Source of the DNA: Heptranchias perlo | Lineage: Eukaryota | NCBI RefSeq assembly: GCF_035084215.1 | Contig: NC_090352.1 | Coordinates: 24,428,001 to 24,492,000 of the forward strand | Direction of reading: 5' to 3' | Length of the DNA: 64,000 nucleotides | Shown here: positions 2,860-60,100 of the stretch, piece after piece | Layout of the letters: each line of letters opens with the position of its first letter | How positions within the stretch are numbered: the first letter of the stretch is position 1 | The notes under the pieces: generated by a model | Databases searched by the model: none | What the model saw: only the letters and a program-made list of their open reading frames with translations | Told to the model about the DNA's origin: nothing | Translations under genes and position numbers: made by a program

Positions 2860-3170
2860 TTAAATTTTTTAAATTCATCCTTGGGATGTCGGTGTCGCTG
2901 GCAAGGCTGGTATTTGTTGCTCATCCCTAGTTAAGAGTCAACCATGTTGCTGTGGGATTGGAGTCACATATAGGACAGACCGGGTAAGGATGGCAGGTTT
3001 CCGTGCCTAAAGAACAGCAGTGCACCAGTTGGGCTTTTACGACAGTCCGACAGCTTCACAGTCACTTTTACTGATTCCAGCTATTTATTTCCAGATTTAA
3101 AAAAATGAATTCAAATTCTTAAACTGCCATGGTGAGATTTGGACTCATGTTCTCTGGATTATTAGCGCAA
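2860..3170 (-). mobile_element. tRNA-headed SINE made of the 5' head and 3' tail of the LINE at 36918-40233
   Basis: The reverse complement aligns by eye to ~36950-37224 (B-box-like gagtccaaatc; cttacccggtctg...cccacagcaa...gactcttaa). It then jumps to the LINE tail 40168-40230 (tagggatg...ccttgccagcgac...catccc) and ends in an A-rich tail. Confidence 0.8.
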
Positions 3171-3494
3171 TTTTGAAAGAAAACTAGTGCAGAAAAATGT
3201 GCATTGAGTCTTGATTTCGACAAGATGAGGATGTAGTGAGGAGGAAGAGCGTGTAACTTTTAGATGCATTATATGATTGGATCAGTGATTAGACTCTTAG
3301 CAATTGGAATGAACTTTCAGCGGAATTTAAATTGTAGAAAACACTTTGTATTGCTAGAGAAATGAATACTAATAACTAACTTTATATAAATATAATAAAG
3401 ATGGGTAAAGCTTCAGAAGCTGAGCATTTTTTTAAAAACTTGCTCTCTCAATAAATGCTCCATTTGTTAACCTTGTCCAAATCTAATCATATTC

Positions 3495-4093
3495 TGCTGC
3501 CCCGCCTCAGCTACTGAAATCTTCATCTATGCTTTTGTTACCTCCAAACTCAACTATTCCAATGCTTTCCTAGCCTGCCTCCCATCTTCCACACTCCATA
3601 AATTTGAGCTCATCAAAAACTTTGCTGTCCGTATTCTAACCCGCACCAAGTCCCGCTCACTCATCACCCCCATGCTCACTGACCTACATTTGCTCCTGGT
3701 CCATCAGTGCCTCAAATTTAAAATTCTCCATCCGTGGCCCCCCCACCTCCTCCCTATCTCTGTAACCTCCTCCAGCCCTACAACGCTCTGAGAAATCTGC
3801 GTTCCTTCAACTCCGAACTCATGTGCATCTCCCACTCCCTTTGCCAATGACGGCCGTGCCTTCAGCCGTCTAGGCCCTAAGCTCTGGAATTCCCTCAATA
3901 AATCCCTCCATCTCCCCACCTCCCTCTCTTCCTTTAAGGCCCTCCTTAAAACTTACCTATTTGACCAAATGTTTAGTCACCTGACCTATTATCTTCTTCG
4001 TTAGCTCAGTGTCAATTTTTGTCTTATTATGCTCCTGTGAAGCACCTTGGGATGTTTTCCAAAGCACCATATAAATGCAAGTTATTGTTGTTG
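3495..4093 (+). mobile_element. L2-type LINE 3' fragment (degenerate)
   Basis: Similar to 48850-49583, encoding decayed RT C-terminal motifs (LHWL.V..RxxFK, GRAFS..GP..WNSLP). Ends in tataaatgcaagt-(tgt)n. Confidence 0.75.
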
Positions 4094-9770: not shown

Positions 9771-9840
9771 CTATGTATTCTTTGGGGGAGGAAAAGAAAT
9801 TCTTGCTATAGTTTTAACTTTAGTTGAAATTTTACAGCAT

Positions 9841-10632
9841 TTTTTAAAAATTTGTTCTTGGGATGTGAGTGACACTGACAAGGCAGTATTTATTTCCCAT
9901 CTCTAATTCCCCTTAAGCCATTAAGAGTCAACATAGAAGGAGAAGATTTTAACTCTCTCCACCATGCGGAACACGAGTTAAAATCCATACGGTGGACTGG
10001 CCCGGCGGCCATTTTAACACCGCTGTTTCCTTGGGTGATCAAGGCACGCATGGGTCAGGTGGGAGCCTCATGAATAAATGTAAATCGGGGTTCGATGATG
10101 TCAATAGGACCCTGATGCAATTTTAACTGTCAACTGAGCAGAGCATCCACATTCAGTAAAACCTGGCCAATACCCAGTGGAGGACCTGTTAGTTTAAAAC
10201 TTATCTTTGTGGGGTCAGGAGGTTGTCAGAGTGCCGGCCTGGCAGTCTCCAGGCCGCCCGATCTTCGCAGGCCCAAAGCTGGCGAGCTCCCTCTGGACAC
10301 CCATTTCTGGAGAGCAGCTAGGTCATTAAAATGGACTAGGCCTCACACTGCAATATCCAGTTGTGCGGCCTGTGTGTCCTACAAATTCCCCCTATAATGT
10401 GGGACAGAAGTCACGTATCGGTCAGACTGGTTAGGGGTGGCAGGTCCCTTTCCTGAAGGATATGAGGGAATCAGTTGGGTTTTTACAATGAAACAGCAGC
10501 TTTCATGGTCATTTTATTTGGTGCCAGCCCACAAATTGACAAATTTATCAAATTCAATTTTATGCGGTGGGATTTGAACTCATGAATTCTAGGTTGCTCG
10601 TCTAGTACAATAACCACTAGGCTACCATACCC
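9841..10632 (-). mobile_element. tRNA-headed head+tail SINE (LINE 36918 family) split by a MITE insertion
   Basis: Tail at 9841-9935 and head at 10393-10632, with A-box TAGCCTAGTGG and B-box GAGTTCAAATCC on the minus strand. Confidence 0.75.
9936..10392. mobile_element. Harbinger-like MITE nested in the SINE
   Basis: GC-rich insert with the same attttaac/gttaaaat motifs as 850-1508. It interrupts otherwise collinear SINE sequence. Confidence 0.55.
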
Positions 10633-15130: not shown

Positions 15131-15959
15131 ACACTTTTGCCTTAAGATTAAGGGTATTGTAATTTAGCAGCTGTTGCAAGACATAATTGCAAAGCATTTT
15201 CAACAAGATTACAAAATAGGGTGCCTGACTGATCATGTGACATCATCAACACCAAAAAAGGTGATATTCAGCAGTTAGTGCTGGTTATGAAATATTTAAC
15301 AACATTTTTCAAACAAATTATGCCAAATCATATATTATTTTCTTCAATATGATCTCCTACAATTTTACTTCGCATTTGCAAAATAATTTCAATTAAATTT
15401 CACATGTACAATTTTAGGTGAGCTGAACTGAGTGGAGTGATATACAACAGGCCATGCTTGGTATAAATATGGGCTTTCAGTTTCTACACAAAAAATTTGT
15501 TGGACCTGCAGAGAATATAAAGGACAAAAAATGGGCAGAAACCTAGGTCTTATCTCCTCAAAAGTGCAAGAGGTGGAGAGAAGGACGGACATCCTGTATC
15601 CACAAGGGGGCAGGTGGCCCTCCAGACATATGCTCAGGAGGCAGTGGGAGGAAGTAGTGGTGGAGATCAATGCCAGTAGTATAGCTCCAAGAACATGGAT
15701 GCAATGCAGGAAGAAGTTCAATAATCTGACACGAGTTGTTAAGGTGAGTGAATTCAATCTTCAAATGCATATCCTACCAATTGCACCACCAGCCTCATCC
15801 ACTGCTCAATTCACTACATCCCCATCACCCACCTACCAACAATCTCTTTCAATCAGTACTCAACCCCTCAATTCATATGGCTTATCTCACCCTCACACAC
15901 TCAGCACTGTTGCAAGCCTCAGATTCACAGCTCACACTCACTGGCAACTTTCAACCATA

Positions 15960-16166
15960 ATGTGGAGATGCCGGTGATGGACTGGGGTGGACAAATGTAA
16001 GGAATCTTACAACACCAGATTATAGTCCAACAGTTTTAGTTGAAAATCACAAGCTTTCGGAGGCTTTCTCCTTCGTCAGGTCACCTGACGAAGGAGAAAG
16101 CCTCCGAAAGCTTGTGATTTTCAAATAAAACTGTTGGACTATAACCTGGTGTTGTAAGATTCCTTA
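15960..16166. mobile_element. Palindromic Penelope-like terminal-repeat insertion with a 13-bp TSD
   Basis: Arms 15998-16081 and 16083-16166 are inverted with 2 mismatches. TSD ctttcaaccatRa at 15948-15960 and 16168-16180. Nearly identical to 41119-41206 and homologous to 30532-30657. Confidence 0.85.
16081..16117 (+). ncRNA. Minimal type I hammerhead ribozyme motif (mirror copy on the minus strand)
   Basis: tcac-CTGACGA-a-ggag-aaagc-ctcc-GAAA-gctt-gtga: catalytic core, stem II, stem I tcac/gtga and a palindromic AAGCTT stem III. Confidence 0.7.
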
Positions 16167-17894
16167 GCTTTCAACCATGACAGCTACATCACCCAAACAT
16201 CTTGCAGGACATTCGCTGACAAAGTTCCCTCTTTCTTGCAGGAGAAGATGACTCATAACAGGAGGCAGCAACAAACAACTGGAGGCGGACAAGCTCGCCT
16301 ACACGTTTTAACCCCCATGGAGGAGACAGTGCTGGCCATCATGGGAATGGACATCGCTGAGGCCATGGCCACTGGCAGTGCTGGAGGGATCAATGAGAAG
16401 GGTCTCTGCACACCGAATCCTCCTCCCCTCTTCCCACTTCTCCTTCATCCCACAATCTTTTCTGACTCACGTGCTGCAGATGGTGTAAGCACGCATTTCT
16501 TACTTTCCCCTCTCCCCTCACCACAACCCAACCCTTGTTCCTTTTTCATTTCAGATATCCAAGAACTGGAACCTTCCCAGTCAGAGGAGGAAGAAGAAGA
16601 AGACAGTGATGATGAAGAGACACCGTCACTCAATCCTACACTCGCAGCCATCAGCTCAGAGACTGACACTGCGCGTACTTTAGAGGCTAGGATAGAGGAG
16701 GGATCTGCACGTGGTGAGACACCGGGCACAAGTGCGCAGGAGCTAGGGCGGGGGAAAAGGATACCGCAGTTGCCAGCTCACAGAGGGTGAGGTCAACACT
16801 AGTTCTGCTGCAGAGGAGTCAGATGAGGAATTTGATGGCCCAAGCTACAGAAGAAGGCTGATGGGCGTGTACAACCAAATGCCAGGTGCACTAGAAAGCC
16901 TGCGCATAATGTCAGGGAGCATAGAGTCATCTAGCTCCAACTTGGCACAGAGCTTGAAGCCCATCCTTTCCAACATGGAACAGGTGGTCACCTCCACCAG
17001 CACACCTGTGGAAGCCGCCATGATGCAGCGTCTGATAACCAATGTCACAGTTTCCAGTGCAGCATAAACAGCTTACATCAAAGGTCTGACTGCTGCCTTG
17101 GAAGCTCAAACTGCTGCTATCGTGGCTCTGGGTACCACTGTTGAAAGGGGCGTCTAGCGTGTCATAGCAGTCCAGCAATTTGTTGTCCAACAGATCACCA
17201 GGATTGCTGAGGCACTGCCCTGGGAGAGTGGCAGTGGTTCCATGGAAGAGGAAGCTGCTGTCCTCTCTCAGGATGACAGCATTCCTGTTCCCACCCCTGC
17301 CACTCCACCAGTGCCCTTGCCTGTCATCCAGCCAGCCCAGACTGCTGCAGCCCAGTCTGAGATGGTGCAGTCTGAAGGCAAGCCCTTTAAGCCCAGAGCT
17401 GCTCAAGGTCATCCTCCAAGGCCATCTTCAGTCTCCTCAATTGAAGGTCAGCAGCCTTCCACCACCCATGCTGCAGCCACTGGGGAAGCACCTCATAGGA
17501 GCACTAGGTGTAATAAACTGGAAAGCCAGGTGGTGAAGGATAGAATACTAGAGCCTGATCTTCAGTTGCTTCCAAGCCTTTATTCACAGAGATCCACATT
17601 ACACCCACACCACACACAAGATCAGCTCTCTTATAAATGGATACAAGAGAGTTCCCAATTGATATGCACCACCTGAATACAATTAACACTAATTGATATA
17701 AATCACATGGATACAATTAACACTAGGAAAGATAAAGGCACACGAAAGACAGGCACTAAGGGAATGCACACGGGTGAATAGTTTCATTTTGTACGCATTA
17801 TTTAATGAGTAAATTGACAAATTTGAATTTGCATTTGGTTTTGGTAGTGGTTTTTATTTCTGTTGTGACCTGAGGGAGGAACTAATATGTGTTG

Positions 17895-21441: not shown

Positions 21442-24055
21442 TTTATTTATTTATTTTTTATTCGTTCACGGGATGTGGGCGTCGATGGCAAGGCCGGCAT
21501 TTATTGCCCATCCCTAATTGCCCTCGAGAAGGTGGTGGTGAGCCGCCTTCTTGAACCGCTGCAGTCCGTGTGGTGACGGTTCTCCCACAGGGCTGTTAGG
21601 AAGGGAGTTCCAGGATTTTGACCCAGCGACAATGAAGGAACGGCAATATATTTCCAAGTCGGGATGGTGTGTGACTTGGAGGGGAACGTGCAGGTGGTGT
21701 TGTTCCCATGCGCCTGCTGCCCTTGTCCTTCTAGGTGGTAGAGGTCGCGGGTTTGGGAGGTGCTGTCGAAGAAGCCTTGGCGAGTTGCTGCAGTGCATCC
21801 TGTGGATGGTGCACACTGCAGCCACAGTGCGCCGGTGGTGAAGGGAGTGAATGTTTAGGGTGGTGGATGGGGTGCCAATCAAGCGGGCTGCTTTATCTTG
21901 GATGGTGTCGAGCTTCTTGAGTGTTGTTGGAGCTGCACTCATCCAGGCAAGTGGAGAGTATTCCATCACACTCCTGACTTGTGCCTTGTAGATGGTGGAA
22001 AGGCTTTGGGGAGTCAGGAGGTGAGTCACTCGCCGCAGAATACCCAGCCTCTGACCTGCTCTCGTAGCCACAGTATTTATATGGCTGGTCCAGTTAAGTT
22101 TCTGGTCAATGGTGACCCCCAGGATGTTGATGGTGGGGGATTCGGCGATGGTAATGCCGTTGAATGTCAAGGGGAGGTGGTTAGACTCTCTCTTGTTGGA
22201 GATGGTCATTGCCTGGCACTTATCTGCCTGCCACTTATGAGCCCAAGCCTGGATGTTGTCCAGGTCTTGCTGTATGCAGGCTCGGACTGCTTCATTATCT
22301 GAGGGGTTGCAAATGGAACTGAACACTGTGCAGTCATCAGCGAACATCCCCATTTCTGACCTTATGATGGAGGGAAGGTCATTGATGAAGCAGCTGAAGA
22401 TGGTTGGGCCTAGGACACTGCCCTGAGGAACTCCTGCAGCAATGCCCTGGGGCTGAGATGATTGGCCTCCAACAACCACTACCATCTTCCTTTGTGCTAG
22501 GTATGACTCCAGCCACTGGAGAGTTTTCCCCCTGATTCCCATTGACTTCAATTTTACTAGGGCTCCTTGGTGCCACACTCGGTCAAATGCTGCCTTGATG
22601 TCAAGGGCAGTCACTCTCACCTCACCTCTGGAATTCAGCTCTTTTGTCCATGTTTGGACCAAGGCTGTAATGAGGTCTGGAGCCGAGTGGTCCTGGCGGA
22701 ACCCAAACTGAGCATCGGTGAGCAGGTTATTGGTGAGTAAGTGCCGCTTGATAGCACTGTCGACGACACCTTCCATCACTTTGCTGATGATTGAGAGTAG
22801 ACTGATGGGGCGGTAATTGGCCGGATTGGATTTGTCCTGCTTTTTGTGGACAGGACATACCTGGGCAATTTTCCACATTGTCGGGTAGATGCCAGTGTTG
22901 TAGCTGTACTGGAACAGCTTGGCTAGAGGCGCAGCTAGTTCTGGAGCACAAGTCTTCAGCACTACAGCTGGGATGTTGTCAGGGCCCATAGCCTTTGCTG
23001 TATCCAGTGCACTCAGCCGTTTCTTGATATCACGTGGAGTGAATCGAATTGGCCGAAGACTGGCTTCCATGATGGTGGGGATATCGGGAGGAGGCTGAGA
23101 TGGATTATCCACTCGGCACTTCTGGCTGAAGATGGTTGCAAACGCTTCAGCCTTGTCTTTTGCACTCACGTGCTGGACTCCGCCATCATTGAGAATGGGG
23201 ATGTTTGCAGAGCCTCCTCCTCCCGTTAGTTGTTTAATTGTCCACCACCATTCACGACTGGATGTGGCAGGACTGCAGAGCTTTGATCTGATCCGTTGGT
23301 TGTGGAATCGCTTAGCTCTGTCTATAGCATGTTGCTTCCGCTGTTTAGCATGCATGTAGTCCTGAGTTGTAGCTTCACCAGGTTGGCACCTCATTTTTAG
23401 GTACGCCTGGTGCTGCTCCTGGCATGCTCTTCTACACTCCTCATTGAACCAGGGTTGATCCCCTGGCTTGTTGGTAATGGTAGAGTGAGGAATATGCTGG
23501 GCCATGAGGTTACAGATTGTGCTGGAATACAATTCTGCTGCTGCTGATGGCCCACAGCGCCTCATGGATGCCCAGTTTTGAGCTGCTAGATCTGTTCTGA
23601 ATCTATCCCATTTAGCACGGTGGTAGTGCCACACAACACGTTGGATGGTGTCCTCAGTGTGAAGACGGGATTTCATCTCCACGAGGACTGTGCGGTGGTC
23701 ACTCCTACCAATACTATCATGGACAGATGCATTTGCGACAGGTAGATTGGTGAGGACGAGGTCAAGTAAGTTTTTCCCTCGTGTTGGTTCGCTCACCACC
23801 TGCCGCAGGTCCAGTCTAGCAGCTATGTCCTTCAGGACTCGGCCAGCTCGGTCAGTAGTGGTGCTACCGAGCCACTCTTGGTGATGGACATTGAAGTCCC
23901 CCACCCAGAGTACATTTTGTGCCCTTGCTACCCTCAGTGCTTCCTCCAAGTGGTGTTCAACATGGAGGAGGACTGATTCATCAGCTGAGGGAGGACGGTA
24001 GGTGGTAATCAGCAGGAGGTTTCCTTGCCCATGTTTGACCTGATGCCATGAGATT
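21442..24055 (-). mobile_element. 5'-truncated young copy of the tRNA-headed APE-RT LINE (CR1 group)
   Basis: Nearly identical to 37617-40233 in inverted orientation, with an (AATA)n/A tail at 21442-21462. Confidence 0.95.
21514..24055 (-). CDS. APE endonuclease (N-terminally truncated) plus reverse transcriptase ORF
   Basis: Motifs GDFN, LDLV, SDH, PWFN, GPD, YRPISLL, QFGFR, LDIKAAFD, GVPQGSVLGP and FADD. The frame is open but has a 12-bp deletion (WQADKC vs WQVTFMPDKC). The first ~37 aa of the ORF-track protein are flanking DNA. Confidence 0.85.
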
Positions 24056-36995: not shown

Positions 36996-37263
36996 CGCCA
37001 CGGCAGCTGGCGAATTTAAAATTCAATTAATTAATTAAATTCAATTAATTAAATAAAAATCTGGAATTAAAATACTAGTATCAGTAATGATGGCCATGAA
37101 ACTACCGGATTGTCGTAAAAACCCATCTGGTTCACTAATGTCCTTTCGGGAAGGAAGCCTGCCGCCCTTACCCGGTCTGGCCGACATGTGACTCCAGACC
37201 CACAGCAATGTGGTTGATTCTTAATTGCCCTCTGAAATAGCCTAGCAAGCCACTCAGTTGTAA

Positions 37264-40170
37264 AATCTCGCTACGAAAAGTCATAATAAGAATAAAACCG
37301 GACGGACCACTAGGCACCGGACACGACAACGGCAAAACACCAGGCCCAGTCGACCCTGCAAGGTCCTCCTGACTAACATCTGGGGACTTGTGCCAAAATT
37401 GGGAGAGCTGTCCCACAGACTAGTCAAGCAACAGCCTGACATAGCCATACTCACAGAATCATATCTTTCAGCCAACGTCCCAGACTCTTCCATCACCATC
37501 CCTGGGTATGTCCTGTCCCACCGGCAGGACAGACTCACCAGAGGTGGCGGTACAGTGATATACAGTCAGGAGGGAGTGGCCCTGGGAGTCCTCAACATTG
37601 ACTCTGGACCCCATGAAATCTCATGGCATCAGGTCAAACATGGGCAAGGAAACCTCCTGCTGATTACCACCTATCGTCCTCCCTCAGCTGATGAATCAGT
37701 CCTCCTCCATGTTGAGCACCACTTGGAGGAAGCACTGAGGGTAGCAAGGGCACAAAATGTACTCTGGGTGGGGGACTTCAATGTCCATCACCAAGAGTGG
37801 CTCGGTAGCACCACTACTGACCGAGCTGGCCGAGTCCTGAAGGACATAGCTGCTAGACTGGGCCTGCGGCAGGTGGTGAGCGAACCAACACGAGGGAAAA
37901 ACTTACTTGACCTCGTCCTCACCAATCTACCTGTCGCAAATGCAACTGTCCATGACAGTATTGGTAGGAGTGACCACCGCACAGTCCTCGTGGAGATGAA
38001 GTCCCGTCTTCGCACTGAGGACACCATCCAACGTGTTGTGTGGCACTACCACCGTGCTAAATGGGATAGATTCAGAACAGATCTAGCAGCTCAAAACTGG
38101 GCATCCATGAGGCGCTGCGGGCCATCAGCAGCAGCAGAATTGTATTCCACCACAATCTGTAACCTCATGGCCCGGCATATTCCTCACTCTACCATTACCA
38201 ACAAGCCAGGGGATCAACCCTGGTTCAATGAGGAGTGTAGAAGAGCATGCCAGGAGCAGCACCAGGCGTACCTAAAAATGAGGTGCCAACCTGGTGAAGC
38301 TACAACTCAGGACTACATGCATGCTAAACAGTGGAAGCAACATGCTATAGACAGAGCTAAGCGATTCCACAACCAACGGATCAGATCAAAGCTCTGCAGT
38401 CCTGCCACATCCAGTCGTGAATGGTGGTGGACAATTAAACAACTAACGGGAGGAGGAGGCTCTGCAAACATCCCCATTCTCAATGATGGCGGAGTCCAGC
38501 ACGTGAGTGCAAAAGACAAGGCTGAAGCGTTTGCAACCATCTTCAGCCAGAAGTGCCGAGTGGATGATCCATCTCAGCCTCCTCCCGATATCCCCACCAT
38601 CACGGAAGCCAGTCTTCGGCCAATTCGATTCACTCCACGTGATATCAAGAAATGGCTGAGTGCACTGGATACAGCAAAGGCTACAGGCCCCGACAGCATC
38701 CCAGCTGTAGTGCTGAAGACTTGTGCTCCAGAACTAGCTGCGCCTCTAGCCAAGCTGTTCCAGTACAGCTACAACACTGGCATCTACCCGACAATGTGGA
38801 AAATTGCCCAGGTATGTCCTGTCCACAAAAAGCAGGACAAATCCAATCCGGCCAATTACCGCCCCATCAGTCTACTCTCAATCATCAGCAAAGTGATGGA
38901 AGGTGTCGTCGACAGTGCTATCAAGCGGCACTTACTCACCAATAACCTGCTCACCGATGCTCAGTTTGGGTTCCGCCAGGACCACTCGGCTCCAGACCTC
39001 ATTACAGCCTTGGTCCAAACATGGACAAAAGAGCTGAATTCCAGAGGTGAAGTGAGAGTGACTGCCCTTGACATCAAGGCAGCATTTGACCGAGTGTGGC
39101 ACCAAAGATCCCTCGTAAAATTGAAGTCAATGGGAATCAGGGGGAAAACTCTCCAGTGGCTGGAGTCATACCTAGCACAAAGGAAGATGGTAGTGGTTGT
39201 TGGAGGCCAATCATCTCAGCCCTAGGGCATTGCTGCAGGAGTTCCTCAGGGCAGTGTCCTAGGCCCAACCATCTTCAGCTGCTTCATCAATGACCTTCCC
39301 TCCATCATAAGGTCAGAAATGGGGATGTTCGCTGATGACTGCAGAGTGTTCAGTTCCATTCGTAACCCCTCAGATAATGAAGCAGTCCGAGCCTGCATGC
39401 AGCAAGACCTGGACAACATCCAGGCTTGGGCTCATAAGTGGCAAGTAACATTCATGCCAGATAAGTGCCAGGCAATGACCATCTCCAACAAGAGAGAGTC
39501 TAACCACCTCCCCTTGACATTCAACGGCATTACCATCGCCGAATCCCCCACCATCAACATCCTGGGGGTCGCCATTGACCAGAAACTTAACTGGACCAGC
39601 CATATAAATACTGTGGCTACGAGAGCAGGTCAGAGGCTGGGTATTCTGCGGCGAGTGACTCACCTCCTGACTCCCCGAAGCCTTTCCACCATCTACAAGG
39701 CACAAGTCAGGAGTGTGATGGAATACTCTCCACTTGCCTGGATGAGTGCAGCTCCAACAACACTCAAGAAGCTCGACACCATCCAAGATAAAGCAGCTCG
39801 CTTGATTGGCACCCCATCCACCACCCTAAACATTCACTCCCTTCACCACCGGCGCACTGTGGCTGCAGTGTGCACCATCCACAGGATGCATTGCAGCAAC
39901 TCGCCAAGGCTTCTTCGACAGCACCTCCCAAACCCGCGACCTCTACCACCTAGAAGGACAAGAGCAGCAGGCACATGGGAACAACACCACCTGCACGTTC
40001 CCCTCCAAGTCACACACCATCCGGACTTGGAAATATATCGCCATTCCTTCATTGTCGCTGGGTCAAAATCCTGGAACTCCCTTCCTAACAGCACTGTGGG
40101 AGAACCGTCACCACACGGACTGCAGCGGTTCAAGAAGGCGGCTCACCACCACCTTCTCGAGGGCAATTAG
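37264..40170 (+). pseudogene. APE endonuclease-reverse transcriptase ORF with one premature stop
   Basis: The frame opens after TAA at 37261-37263 and contains NIWGL, PDIAILTES, GGG, YRPP, GDFN, SDH and all RT motifs including FADD. A single TAG at 39223-39225 is CAG in the other copy. ORFs 37390 and 39319 are in the same frame. Confidence 0.9.
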
Positions 40171-40814
40171 GGATGGGCAATAAATGTCGGCCTTGCCAGC
40201 GACGCCCACATCCCGTGAACGAATAAAAAAAAAGCTGAATGAAACTGTTTTTAAATCAGATTTACCAGTCTATCTACGGTCATACAACACAAAATATCTG
40301 TATTTTGTCACCATTACCATGAAAACATATGGCTGAAGATGTGTCTCCAAATGTGCTCACAGCAACAAAAAAAATGGTAAATGGAACTGTATGTTGCTAC
40401 ATGCATCTGTTTTTAATATGTAAATTTAGGAAGCAATTAGTAATTTTACCTATTTATCCATCTTGATTAACTTACCCCACCCACACTGGTAGGAAAACAA
40501 TTCTGCCTGTTTGGCCACACTGTGCAAAATTGGTTTACCTGGTGGAGACCAAACAGGGCTACATGAAAGAGAGTTGTAATGCTAATACTCAGTGGAAAGC
40601 CTAGGCCTCTTTCTTTTGGTGAGGCCCATTTGAACTCCCAACTATGATGATGTTGACTATCTCTGCGTGCCTGGGTAATTGCTCAGAATCCATCATATCT
40701 TGTCGGTGGAATTAAGAGCCATAGAAACTCAATGCAAAGGATTTCATATTTCAGTTTGAGAATATTAAAATATGGCTTGCTCCAGTGTTATTTGGTGTGC
40801 TGTGAGAATGGTGT

Positions 40815-41206
40815 TGGGATCTTGGGTTCATGTCACGCTACATGTAACCCCACCAGCGAAAATAGAGTTATCTGTTTTTAATACAACTGGTCATTCTCTC
40901 TCTTTTTCTCTTCCTTTCGGATGTTTCTCTCTCTCTCTCTCTCTGTCTTTGGGTTCTGACCGTTTGTATATTCAGTAGTCCTGTATGTAATGTCTCTCTG
41001 TCTGAACACTATTCGACTCCTTTGATTGCCTTGACAACGGGCAGTTGGAAAGATTATCTGTAATCACCAGGCATTGTTCTCTGACTATATATGCAGTACC
41101 TTCCATGGAATCCCACACTCACCTGACGAAGGAGAAAGCCTCCGAAAGCTTGTGATTTTCAAATAAAACTGTTGGACTATAACCTGGTGTTGTAAGATTC
41201 CTTACA
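40815..41206 (+). mobile_element. Penelope-like element 3' end/pseudo-LTR with a hammerhead motif
   Basis: Starts with gggatcttgggttcatgtcacgctac (DLGFMSRY, as in 30877-30905). Hammerhead at 41119-41155. Possible TSD aatggtgt at 40807-40814 and 41209-41216. Confidence 0.85.
41119..41155 (+). ncRNA. Minimal hammerhead ribozyme motif
   Basis: tcac-CTGACGA-a-ggag-aaagc-ctcc-GAAA-gctt-gtga, identical to 16081-16117. Confidence 0.7.
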
Positions 41207-45808: not shown

Positions 45809-46064
45809 TTCATATAGGTCAGATCAGGTAAGGATGACAAGTTTGTTTCCCTAAAGGACATTAGTGAACCAGTTGGGTTTTTACAACAATCCGACAGCTT
45901 CATGGTCACTTTTACTGGTACCAGCTTTTTATTTCCAGATTTTTTTTCAACTGAATTCAAATTCTGAAAATGTCATGATGGGATTTGAACTCATGATCTC
46001 TAAATTAATAGTCCAGGCTCTGGATCACTAGTTCAATAACATAACCGCTATGCTACCATACCCC
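45809..46064 (-). mobile_element. tRNA-headed SINE (LINE 36918 family), head only
   Basis: The minus strand reads ggggtatggTAGCATAGCGGttatgtta...GAGTTCAAATCC..., collinear with 36918-37190. Confidence 0.8.
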
Positions 46065-48849: not shown

Positions 48850-49583
48850 TGAACCAGACAGTTCACAACCTCGCGTCCTATTTGACTGTGAGCTGAGCTT
48901 CCGACCTTACATCCTCTCCATCACCAAGACTGCTTAGTTCCACCTCAGTAATATTGCCCATCTCCGCCTTTGCCTCAGCCCATCGGCTGCTGAAACCCTC
49001 ATCCATGCCTTTGTTACCTCCAAAATCGAATATTCCAATGCGCTCTTGGCCAGCGATCCGCCATCCGCCTTCCACCCTCCAAAACTCTGCTGTCCATATC
49101 CTAACCCGCACCAAGTCCTGTCCACCCATGAATCCTGTGGTCGCTGACCTACATTGGCTCCAGTCCAGCAACGCCTCAAATTTAAAATTCTCATCCTTGT
49201 GTTCAAATCACTCCATTGCCTCACCCGTCCCTATCTCTGTAACCTCCTCCAGCCATACAACCCTCCGAGATCTCTGCGCTCCTCCAAATCTGGCCTCTTG
49301 CGCATCGCCGATTTCCCTCACCCCATCATTGGTGGTCGTGCCTTCAGCTGCCTAGGCCCTAAGTTCTGGAATTCCCTCCCTAAACCTCTCCTCCTCGCTA
49401 CCTCTCTCTCCTCCTTTAAGACACTCCTTAAAACTTGCCTCTTTGACCAAGCTTTTGTTCACCTGCCCTAATATCTCTTTATGTAGCTTGGTATCAAATT
49501 TTTGTTTGATAATCACTCCTGTGAAATGCCTTGGGACATTTTACTATGTTAAAGGCGCTATATAAATGCAAGCTGTTGTTGTT
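48850..49583 (+). mobile_element. L2 LINE 3' fragment
   Basis: Encodes PVQQRLKFKILILVFKSLH.L..PYL...RSLRSS...GGRAFSCLGPKFWNSLP...FKTLLKT.LF; tail ggcgctatataaatgcaag(tgt)n. Confidence 0.85.
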
Positions 49584-53002: not shown

Positions 53003-54400
53003 TACAAAATTGAGAGAGCTGTCCCACAGACTAGTCAAGCAACAGTCAGCACCATTCTCACTGAATCATACCTTTCAGCAACATCCCAAACTCTTCCATC
53101 ACCATCCCTGGGTATGTCCTGTCCCACTGGCAGGACAGACCCACCAGAGGTGGCGGAACAGTGATATACAGTCAGGAGGGAGTGGCCCTGGGAGTCCTCA
53201 ACATTGACTCCTGTCCCCATGAAATCTCATGGCATCAGGTCAAACACGGGCAAGGAAACCTCCTGCTGATTACCACCTACCGTCCTCCCTCAGCTGATGA
53301 ATCAGTCCTCCTCCATGTTGAGCACCACTTGGAGGAAGCACTGAGGGTAGCAAGGGCACAGAATGTACTCTGGTTGGGGGACTTCAATGTCCATCACCAA
53401 GAGTCACTCGATAGCACCACTACTGACTGAGCTGGCCGAGTCCTGAAGGACATAGCTGCCAGACTGGGCCTGTGGCAGGTGGTGAGCAAACCAAGACGAG
53501 GGAAAAACGTACTTGACCTCATCCTCATCAATCTACCTGTCACAGATATGTCTGTCCATGACAGTATTGGTAGGAGTAACCACCGCACAGTCCTTGTGGA
53601 GACGAAGTCCCGTCTTTACACTGAGGACACCATCCAACGTGTTGAGGACACTACCACTATGCTAAATGGGATAGGTTCAGAACAGATCTAGCTGCTCAAA
53701 ACTGGGCATCCATGAGGTGCCGTGCGCCACCAGCAGCAGCAGAATTGTATTCCAGCACAATCTGTAACCTCATGGCCTGGCATTTTCCTCATTCTACCAT
53801 TACCAATAAGCCAGGGGATCAACCCTGGTTCAATGAGGATTGTAGAAGAACATGCCAGAAGCAGCACCAGGCATACCTAAAAATGAGGTGCCAACCTGGT
53901 GAAGCTACAACACAGGACTAAACAATGCAAGTAACATGCTATAGACAGAGCTGAGCGATTCCACAACCAACGGATCAGATCAAAGCTCTGCAGTCCTGCC
54001 ACATCCAGTCGTGAATGGTGGTGGACAATTAAACAACTAATGGGAGGAAGAGGCTCCGTGAACATCCCCAGCAACTCGCCAAGGCTTCTTCGACAGCACC
54101 TCCCAAACCTGCGAACTCTACCACCTAGAAGGACAAGGGCAGCAGGCACATGGGAACAACACCACCTGCATATTCCCCTCCAAGTCACACATCATCCCGA
54201 CTTGGAAATATATTGCCGTTCCTTCATCATCGCTGGGTCAAAATCCTGGAACCCCCTTCCTAACAGCACTGTGGGAGAACCTTCACCACACGGACTGCAG
54301 CGGTTCAAGAAGGCGGCTCACCACCACCTTCTCAAGGGCAATTAAGGATGGGCAATAAATGCTGGCCTTGCTCAAATCCCACAAATGAATAAAAAAAAAA
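53003..54400 (+). mobile_element. Internally deleted copy of the tRNA-headed LINE family
   Basis: Collinear with 37394-38476, then jumps at ~54070 to 39895-40230, removing the whole RT core. Several indels and stops. Confidence 0.9.
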
Positions 54401-57199: not shown

Positions 57200-60100
57200 G
57201 CTTGCAGTTACTACCTGTGAGGATAAGGATAAAAACTGTCGGAAGGATAGCCAGAATGCTGACAATGGCACCCTGGAGCAGGAGACTGACCAAAGTAGGG
57301 AGGAGGAGGAGAAGCATGATGTGGTAATTGTAGGGGATTCAATAATTAGGGGGACAGATAGCATCCTTTGTAAGCAGGATTGAGAGTCCCACTTGGTATG
57401 TTGCCTACCTGGTGCCAGGGTGAGGGACATGTTGAACCGGCTTGAAAGGATATTGGAGAGGGAGTAGGAGGATCCAGTCGTTGTGGTCCATGTTGGTACC
57501 AACAACATAGAAAAGAGTAGGCAAGAGGTCCTGTTCAGAGAGTGCCTGGAACTAGGAACTAAATTTTAAAAAAACAGGACCTCAAGGGTTCTAATCTCTG
57601 GATTATTACACAAGCCACATGCAAATTGGGGTAGGGATAAGGAGATTAGGGAGGTGAACACGTGGCTGAAGGAGTGGTGTGGGAAAGAGGAGTTACATTT
57701 CATGGGACACTGGCACCAGTACTGGGACAGGAAGGAGCTGTATCTTTGGGACGGGCTCCACCTGAACTGGGCTGGGACCAGGGTCCTAGCGGAAAGGATA
57801 AATAGAGCAATCACATAGACTTTAAACTAATAAATGGGGGGGCGGGGAGGGCTCAGGTGGTAGAATAAATAATAATTCTAAAACAAATGAAAAGGAAGTG
57901 AGTAGAGTAATAGTCAGAAATTATGTTTTAGGCTCTATAGGTAAAGGGAAAACTAAAAGATGTAAAGTAATTAAATCAGGAGAGAGAAATACGAAATGTG
58001 TGAGAAAAACAACATTAAAGCAGAAGGACAGGTTAGGGGGTGTGACCCAAATAAGCGTTCTTTATACAAACGCATGGAGTATAAGGAACAAATTGAATGA
58101 ATTGCAGGTACAAATTCAACTTAGAGGCTACGACATGGTAGCCATTACTGAGACATGGTTGCAAGACAGTCAGGACTGGGAACTGAATATACCAGGTTAT
58201 AAGGTCTATGGTAAGGATAAGCAGACTAGTACAGGGGGAGGAGTAGCCTTACTGATTAAGGATGGAATTACTTCAATGATAAGAGAGGATATAAGAGAGA
58301 TGAAAAGGCAGTGGAGACTTTATGGGTAGAATTAAGAAATAGAAAAGGATTTAAGACTGTGGTGGGAGCTGTGTATAGGTCCCTTGGTAGCAGCTGTGAA
58401 ATGGCAGTGTGTATAAATGTAGAGATTAGACAAGCATGTAGCAAAGGCAGAATGGTTTTAATGGGGGATTTTAACTTTCATATAGATTGGGATAAGCAGT
58501 TGAGCTCATGTCAGAAAGATAGTGAATTTCTCGTGTGTTCAGGACAGCTTTCTGCAACAATATGTCCCAGAACCAACAAGGGGGCAGGCCATATTAGATT
58601 TAATAATGACTAATGAGCCAGATTTAGTTAACAGCCTAACGGTGCGTGAACATTTATCTAATAGCGATCGAGTTCAAAATTGTGTTTGAAAGGGAGAAAC
58701 CCTTTACAGCTACTAAATTTAGGTAAGGCCGACTTCAACAGGATGAGACAGAGACAGTCCAGAGTAAACTGGGCAAATCTGTTAATGGGTAAAACAACAG
58801 AAGATCAGTGGGAAGTGTTCAAAAAAGAATTTAACGTAAAACAGAACCAGTTTATACCCCTAAGGGGCAAGAGCTCTACTTGCCAAAAAAAAAGCCATGG
58901 ATGACAAAAGAGGTAAGGGACAACATGTAAAAGAAAAAGCATACAAAAATGCAAAAATATCAAAATCAACACAAAAAATGTTTACAATTATATTCGGAAA
59001 AAGAGGGTGGTCAAGACCAATATGAGCCCCTTAAAAACTGATAATGGTGATATTGTTAATGAAAATAAGGAAATGGCGGACATGTTAAATAATTACTTTG
59101 CGTCAGTATTTACAGTAGAGGAAGAGGATAGCATGTCGGACAGCCCAAGGAAACTAATTTTGAATCAGGGACGGGGACTCAATATAATTAACTTAAGCAA
59201 ATTAACAGTGATGAAGAAAATAATGGCACTAAAGAGTGACAATTCCCCAGGACCAGATGGTTTCCATCCCAGGGTTTTAAAGGAAGTAGGTGAGAACATT
59301 GCAGATGCCCTAACTATAATCTTCCAAAGTTTTCTCGATTCAGGATCCGTTCCTTTAGACTGGAAAATTGCATATGTCACTCTGTTATTTAAGAAAGGTG
59401 AGAGAGGGAAACCAGGGAATCATAGACCAGTTAGTCTAACATTTTTTGTCGGGAAATTACTAGAGTCTATAATTAAGGGATAGAGTGGCTGAACACCTTG
59501 AACATTTTCAACTGATCAGAGAGAGCCAGCATGGATTTGCAAAGGGTAGGTCATGCCTGACGAACCTGATTGAATTTTTTGAAGAGGTGACTAAAGTAGT
59601 GGTCAGGGGAATATATATCGATGTTGTTTATATGGACTTCCAGGAGGCATTTAATAAAGTCCCTCTTAAGAGACTGTTAGCTAAAGGTTGAAGCTTATGG
59701 AATTGAGGGCAAGTTAGTGACCTGGTTAGGAAATTGGCTGAGCGGCAGGAGACAGAGAGTAGGGATAATGGGCAGGTACTCAAATTGGCAGGATGTGACT
59801 AGTGTCCCACAGGGATCTGTGTTGGGGCCTCAACTATTCACTGTATTTATTAACAACCTAGATGAAGAGATAGAGAGCCACATATCCAATTTTGTTGCTA
59901 ACACAAAGTTAGGCAGCATTGGAAGCAGTGTAGATGGAAGCATAAAATTACAGAGATATTAATAGATTAAGTGAATGAAATCCATTTGCCACAGCTTTGC
60001 CCAATGTAGGCAAGCATGAGGTTATCCACTTAGGACCTAACAAGGATAGATCAGTGTACTTTCTAAATGGTGAAAAGCTCGAAACAGTGGGGGTCCAAAG

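Follow-up and report, generated by a model that had tools for sequence, protein, structure and literature searches.

Short retroposed copies composed of a tRNA-like head, a conserved body and a LINE tail have been amplified in four organisms, and their junctions are packed just inside the two arms of an inverted repeat that brackets the single ORF of a full-length Zenon-type LINE in Heptranchias perlo. We read these copies, with confidence slightly better than even, as recurrent internal deletions of this head-bearing LINE, placed by microhomology, selection and founder events. The repeat taken alone is of modest weight; the LINE with a SINE head, and the SINEs that it may yield in one step, carry the main weight of the result.

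A Zenon-type LINE begins with a tRNA-like head

The window (the whole 64,000-nt stretch of DNA that was analysed) contains one full-length copy of the element, with the following parts.

36918-40233, plus strand: full-length elasmobranch Zenon-type LINE (CR1 group), ~3.3 kb, delimited by contig depth, loose contig ends and consensus match
36918-37010, plus strand: tRNA-derived head, with an A box at 36922-36932 (2 mismatches) and a B box at 36986-36994
36929-36951 with 37073-37097, plus strand: predicted 23-pair rod closing the head, its first 8 pairs at a probability of 0.82-1.0 in the whole-RNA fold
37100-37262, plus strand: conserved non-coding body, common to LINE and short copies and near-invariant in five species by eye
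37232-37261, plus strand: possible inner hairpin (-1.6 kcal/mol in the present copy), which would stack on the helix formed by the arms
37264-40170, plus strand: single ORF encoding an APE endonuclease and a reverse transcriptase (RT), with an internal stop at 39223-25
40170-40216, plus strand: predicted terminal stem-loop, likely the RT recognition site
40222-40233, plus strand: AATAAA leading into a 9-nt poly-A end, where loose contig ends fall

Summed contig depth, which we did not take as copy number, rises from below 100 in the flanks to 10^4-10^7 between 36921 and 40308 in all four runs, from four organisms, and loose contig ends fall at 36926 and 40231-33 in each of them. The first 400 nt match the published elasmobranch Zenon-1 consensuses by eye (400 nt visible for each), and the lengths of those consensuses are 2886-3314, against 3316 in the present copy. 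By three tested sequence features, a single APE+RT ORF without ORF1, a poly-A end and the consensus match, the element is a Zenon LINE. The HE1/V-SINE and HER1, which we take to be a shark SINE/LINE pair and which had been our first guess for head and element, were abandoned as its identity once the Zenon consensuses matched; a literature search for HE1 found no papers.

All seven elasmobranch consensuses, from five species, carry the tRNA-like head and body at their start and run from there into the leader (by eye, over 400 nt), and the head is therefore part of the LINE. Head and body are absent, by eye, from 3 hagfish and coelacanth rows of the same supplement. That a SINE and a truncated LINE merely happen to lie side by side was ruled out by the contig depth and joints together with the consensuses. 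The A and B boxes were assigned with standard box patterns. ARAGORN identifies the homologous head at 45969-46064 as tRNA-Thr, and Rfam gave no match within 36800-37400. By eye, and uncounted, the consensuses seem to retain the pairing of the head rod with changes on both sides, and an AT-rich palindromic duplication in the head (37027-37052) is missing from them.

The ORF has no in-frame ATG upstream of the endonuclease. The consensuses of five species have an ATG within 37292-37420 (ATA in the present copy) that lies one base off the main frame, and 8 of 12 consensus differences fall, by eye, on third positions of its frame; given this concentration, translation may start at that ATG and then shift frame. 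Gene models of Heptranchias, Heterodontus, Pristiophorus and Scyliorhinus contain fragments of the ORF protein with 67-91% identity, and relatives over the whole length reach at most 41% identity. A protein scan of viral contigs recovered no relatives, and pattern scans for the body or tail had no matches in viral, metagenome and prokaryote collections. In three LINE copies, the AATAAA at the 3' end continues directly into the terminal poly-A, and this ending recalls mammalian SINEs with polyadenylated Pol III RNAs (PMC8466645, in part).

The inverted repeat is perfect in the present copy and imperfect in the family

An 11-bp inverted repeat around the ORF, pointed out by an earlier sequence-only reading, was confirmed by a sequence check, in which the reverse complement of 40159-40169 matches 37222-37232 (TAATTGCCCTC) at every base, and G-U pairs lengthen the repeat to 16 bp (37217-37232/40159-40174).

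37222-37232, plus strand: 5' arm, whose core TGCCCT (37226-37231) is invariant in 6 of 6 intact consensuses
40159-40169, plus strand: 3' arm, which takes in the three last codons (E/K-G-N in the family, E-G-N here) and the first two bases of the stop codon (TAG, 40168-40170); the main family of junctions has its acceptor at 40160

Three perfect 11-bp inverted repeats are present in the 3.3-kb element, against a mean of 1.29 in 500 shuffles, and 75% of these shuffles contain at least one anywhere, so that the occurrence of such a repeat is expected by chance. A repeat of this length that links the 221-nt body/leader to the 125-nt tail, on the other hand, was obtained in only 26 of 5000 shuffles.

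As a trait of the family the perfect repeat was not confirmed. By eye, T at 37225 occurs in none of the six intact published consensuses, three having A and three C; position 37222 is C in one of the six, and 37218 is C in 7 of 7. In the last codon, whose middle base pairs with 37225, all six in-frame C-termini (from nine proteins, of which two read the region in another frame and one falls short) have Asn, and compensation for the variants of 37225 would demand Ser or Ile in its place. Furthermore, position 40159 is A in five of these six C-termini, which breaks the pair with 37232, with three pairs possible past a bulge. The covariation between arms that had been proposed as a check was therefore not seen: the 5' arm varies while its partner is fixed, and no change compensates for another, in a comparison that is weak because it sets 5' arms against 3' arms of other species and of single copies. 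The repeat is genuine, but we infer from these sequences that its perfect pairing is confined to the present copy or to its young subfamily. Across the family the arms show an imperfect complementarity, a 6-bp core with short flanks, in which pairing is borderline. A tRNA head is absent from three distant single-ORF relatives (L001, L002 and L009), whose leader and ORF end match over 6-8 bp at best, in a scan that covered 15 of 40 loci for tRNA and 8 for arms.

Short copies join in a small box beside the arms

The suggestion that head-tail junctions be mapped against the repeat proved fruitful, as they are not scattered: among the 15 best-supported joints of at least 18,916 in contigs from four runs and organisms, ten link 37232-37271 to 40129-40168, a 40 x 40-nt box beside the arms, and the remaining five fall outside it.

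37259-37262, plus strand: point from which both main short-copy junctions depart, in five joint rows found in all four runs
40129-40130, plus strand: acceptor for the second family of junctions, with 67 of 223 contigs

Among the joints listed, the ten in the box comprise 223 contigs, 145 of which join to 40160 and 67 to 40129/30. The five rows present in all four runs start from 37259-62 and account for 208 contigs, and the other five box joint types were found in one or two runs only. Eight of the ten joints are defined by their two ends only, without the letters in between, and the contig counts may pool single and amplified events. Both arms are retained in 217 of the 223 contigs, so the common short forms are not cut at the stem; by folding models, the common short RNA would keep the repeat as a local hairpin ahead of the terminal stem-loop at 40170-40216.

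Candidate direct repeats at the breaks are short. The joints share 0-2 letters when compared with the present copy, and TCAA is common to both sides with some consensuses (by eye); in the window, the repeat is 4 nt in the SINE at 2865-3165 and possibly 3 nt in the SINE at 9835-10631. Matches of 3-4 nt at breaks arise often by chance.

Related copies in the window

2865-3165, minus strand: old short copy (79%), A box missing, with the body-tail joint at the 4-nt repeat of the arms
9835-10631, minus strand: old short copy (75%), with a ~470-nt insert in the body and decayed arms joined at their inner ends
21451-24055, minus strand: young 5'-truncated LINE copy (98%) with the same 3' arm
31826-32529, minus strand: old fragment (76%) of the 5' part of the ORF, without head
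45811-46058, minus strand: head and partial body (73%), no tail
53005-54399, plus strand: older 5'-truncated LINE copy (91-92%), with A at the position of 40159

The two SINEs on which the sequence-only reading had built its case are real, but it left their minus-strand orientation unstated and misdescribed the second, which keeps both arms: its 'tggctt' is a decayed 5' arm, which aligns with 37213-37228, and a decayed 3' arm comes next, starting from 40160. The first joins within a 4-nt direct repeat shared by both arms (37223-26 = 40165-68), with loss of the hairpin. Neither junction was confirmed as typical; they are rarer forms, absent from the best 15 joints of at least 18,916, although a listed joint from 37232 to 40167 may relate to that of the SINE at 9835-10631. 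The ~470-nt insert of this SINE (9933-10397) has no other copy within the window.

The A and B boxes are perfect in the copies at 10624/10579 and 46055/45990, two of the three short heads, and the third (2865-3165) is without its 5' end, where the A box would lie. The short copies, which combine a LINE-derived tail with the absence of an ORF, are amplified in the contigs of four organisms, and in the window they are similar in age to the long ones (73-79% versus 76%). The LINE copy at 53005-54399 has an internal deletion from 38476 to 39894, far from the arms, at a 2-nt repeat. A 6-nt candidate target-site duplication was found at one of five copies examined, and none convincing at the other four. 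The ATG frame and the main frame of the ORF are fused in an old copy at 32101-32688 (minus strand).

The window has other features as well. ORF pieces at 15441-17676 with a Myb/SANT-like domain suggest a Harbinger-type DNA transposon; an 86-nt palindrome at 15996-16166 matches 41119-41206; and a repeat of ~600 nt is present in two copies (73%) at 3507-4092 and 48983-49583.

Predicted pairing of the arms in the full-length RNA

The main idea of the sequence-only reading was that the arms form a long-range helix. The ORF would then be one branch of a three-way junction, 37259-62 would be held beside 40157-60, and the RT would jump repeatedly across the base of the branch; we consider this model rather unlikely. 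Several calculations speak for it. The arm helix has a probability of 0.82-1.0 in the whole-RNA fold of the present copy, in which two other perfect repeats of 11-12 bp in the element stay unformed (below 0.02), and its duplex beats shuffled sequences (P 0.002 for the whole zone and 0.015-0.018 locally). The rarity of a repeat in this position among shuffles also counts in its favour, as do the roughly seven junction types in one 40-nt box among the best 15 joints, and the joining of the SINE at 9835-10631 at the inner ends and of that at 2865-3165 at the outer base. A second predicted helix, 37248-59 with 40119-30 (probability 0.3-0.7), ends at the second acceptor, and the changes of the present copy relative to the consensuses at 37218, 37225 and 40159 each add a pair (by eye and post hoc).

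The same model meets difficulties once the family is considered. Once the two mismatches of the family are emulated, it does not differ significantly from shuffles in its duplex (P 0.07 for the whole zone and 0.125-0.185 locally). The body also has stronger partners than the tail of the present copy in 3 of 44 interior windows, and than two other tails in at least 8 of 44. In favour of the helix, the core pairs still form at 0.54-0.90 in a two-piece model with these mismatches. In a stacked-hairpin model, the arm helix and the inner hairpin stack, and the ORF branches off and returns at the main junction, support that is partly circular because the model was cut at that junction. In contrast, the whole-RNA fold of the present copy pairs 37240-62 with 37293-37315, so that the inner hairpin is not formed and the stacked junction is not predicted. 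This hairpin is weakened by an A at 37239, where all 7 consensuses have G, and would gain ~6.6 kcal/mol if 37239 were paired. The lack of compensating changes between the arms weighs against the long-range helix as well, and the RT would be expected to unwind it before reaching 40160. Long-range pairs proposed by folding programs are unreliable, which we also counted against it.

Two further predictions concern the present copy. The terminal stem-loop at 40170-40216 loses to body-tail pairing in its whole-RNA fold, and a 9-bp body-tail helix (37179-87/40184-92, probability 0.75) was set aside as support, since it depends on copy-specific letters and falls below 0.2 with other tails.

Depletion of T runs on the coding strand

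No TTTT run occurs on the coding strand of the element over 3,304 nt, against 21 on the opposite strand. This absence is weak evidence by itself (0 versus 2.0 by codon permutation, P 0.09-0.10; P 0.076 by dinucleotide shuffles). The depletion is clearer for TTT runs in the ORF, of which there are 5, compared with 12.5 expected when synonymous codons are permuted (none of 1000 permutations as low; P 0.001) and with 18.3 under a null for third positions (none of 2000 as low); Phe is encoded by 3 TTT and 16 TTC codons, and runs of A, C and G are at their expected level. Six control LINE ORFs show no comparable loss of TTT (P 0.054-0.74), under a permutation null that can fire for other reasons, since one of these control ORFs is equally low for C and G runs. 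A decayed second LINE at 57826-60000 (endonuclease domain, CR1-like by reading), used as a control, has 10 TTTT runs.

Four T's terminate transcription by vertebrate Pol III. Because T runs stop this polymerase and TTT runs are depleted here, a coding LINE made by Pol III becomes a live reading, and on the sequence we judge the chances that RNA polymerase III makes the Zenon LINE to be about even. That the long-range helix has a working role is fairly improbable; the arm helix may also aid an uncapped RNA in its translation or in being copied to full length. A combined proposal, which we regard as doubtful, holds that the 3.3-kb strand has been purged of T runs, that the body and its pairing with the ORF end would aid the uncapped RNA, and that each deletion at the base of the branch would give a finished SINE. 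By general rule, LINEs are transcribed by Pol II and SINEs by Pol III (PMC10886601, in part). If Pol III transcription were true, a coding LINE with A and B boxes and a T-run-free strand would break this rule and raise the question of how an uncapped Pol III RNA gets translated.

Origin of the short copies

Under the deletion reading that we favour, the ORF would be lost through RT template jumps or DNA repair at direct repeats of 2-5 nt. A single deletion would yield a complete SINE because the parent LINE already has A and B boxes. With the ORF gone, the arms would fold as a local hairpin, and the two SINEs of the window would, in the simplest view, be later collapses of this hairpin at direct repeats within the arms. 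The position of the junctions would be due mainly to the amplification of two old founder events and to the need of spreading copies to keep the whole body and tail. Long-range pairing in the full RNA may possibly bias the junctions, but it is unnecessary.

Several lines of evidence favour this reading. All 7 consensuses have the head attached to the ORF, by eye, and contig depth is unbroken over 37284-37404. The main joints lead to 40160 (145/223) and 40129/30 (67/223) with both arms kept in 217/223, and five of the best 15 joints of at least 18,916 lie outside the box. The SINE at 2865-3165 is joined at a 4-nt repeat, and the copy at 53 kb was deleted at a 2-nt repeat. Arm changes are not compensated, the family-type duplex reaches only P 0.07 and 0.125-0.185, and L001, L002 and L009 lack the head and comparable arms. 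In butterflies, moreover, Zenon gave rise to Persaeus repeatedly by internal deletion (PMC6740152, in part). Against founders as the explanation, five extra junction types in the same 40-nt box look more like a formation hotspot; against deletion alone stand a helix still at 0.54-0.90 with mismatches and a main junction at the base of the ORF branch in the partly circular stacked-hairpin model.

The second idea of the sequence-only reading reverses the order of events. A hairpin SINE with a Zenon tail would have come first, and a crossover at its body-tail boundary would have brought its head and body into the LINE; the ORF would then lie in a bulge on the side of the ancestral hairpin, of which the arms would be a relic. 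The geometry of an ORF inside a SINE hairpin was well described, and a local hairpin is physically easier than one of 2.9 kb. Head and body must presumably stem from a SINE-like RNA, the likeliest partner being one that shares the tail; jumps of LINE RTs onto small RNAs occur in vivo, as for R2 (PMC3414825, in part), and Zenon-type LINEs drive tRNA SINEs in bivalves (PMC11481361, in part). The main junction is common to four organisms, and the short and long copies of the window are equally old, which would fit a SINE ancestor too. We nevertheless find this order distinctly unlikely, since the crossover must hit the body-tail boundary of the SINE within a few bases, a position that deletion gives free (0-3 extra letters at joints), since later deletions are needed anyway for the two main and five minor junction types, and since the documented direction for Zenon is from LINE to short element (PMC6740152, in part).

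Comparison with known systems

The elasmobranch Zenon LINEs described from CarCar, HypSab, RhiTyp, ScyCan and SquAca (PMC13343379, in part) resemble the present element in their single APE+RT ORF without ORF1, their poly-A end, their length of 3.2-3.3 kb and, by eye, the same first 400 nt. The text of that paper has no match for tRNA and one for SINE, its searchable supplement text has none for tRNA, and the head, the short derivatives and the arms were not found in the part available. Within the literature that we searched, subscription journals and repeat databases lying outside it, we found no description of the shark Zenon head or short copies.

The 5' arm region (37213-37231) is faintly like the UCON3 domain of hagfish SINEs, with a shared exact motif of 9 nt and a loose likeness over 11 nt; among the body domains V, Deu, Meta, CORE and UCON3, this 9-nt motif was the only match in an exact-motif search of three supplements (PMC7245038, PMC11481361 and PMC4824008). 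If real, the likeness would make the arm older than its paired tail.

SINE2 elements, such as those driven by CR1-Zenon LINEs in bivalves (PMC11481361, in part), are alike in their A/B-box head, body, LINE tail and poly-A. Their partner LINE normally shares the tail only, whereas the shark Zenon also shares head and body; since LINE and SINE have all three parts in common, the birth of a SINE may here be one deletion. This bears on the origin of SINEs and of their conserved bodies, and the thousands of junctions in shark genomes make microhomology, RNA structure and selection directly testable against each other.

R2 SIDEs and the bipartite derivatives of RTE, Ingi and Vingi (PMC3414825 and PMC5786205, both in part) are likewise non-autonomous through internal deletion, for which template jumps or recombination have been proposed. 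The available part of PMC5786205 names RTE, Ingi, Vingi and R2, and no others, as having given rise to bipartite forms without an ORF, which are thought to use Pol II and need a second step, the gain of a small-RNA head, to become SINEs, whereas the shark LINE is already headed. The closest parallel by clade is Persaeus, a short butterfly Zenon element in which the 5' and 3' ends of the LINE are joined, with several origins and 5-bp direct repeats at the break (PMC6740152, in part; its text has no match for 'secondary structure'). Persaeus is without tRNA homology or a Pol III promoter, whereas the shark short copies inherit A and B boxes. In make-up, the shark copies are thus like Persaeus and the R2 SIDEs, yet, judged by their letters, they carry a putative Pol III promoter and the features of a tRNA SINE.
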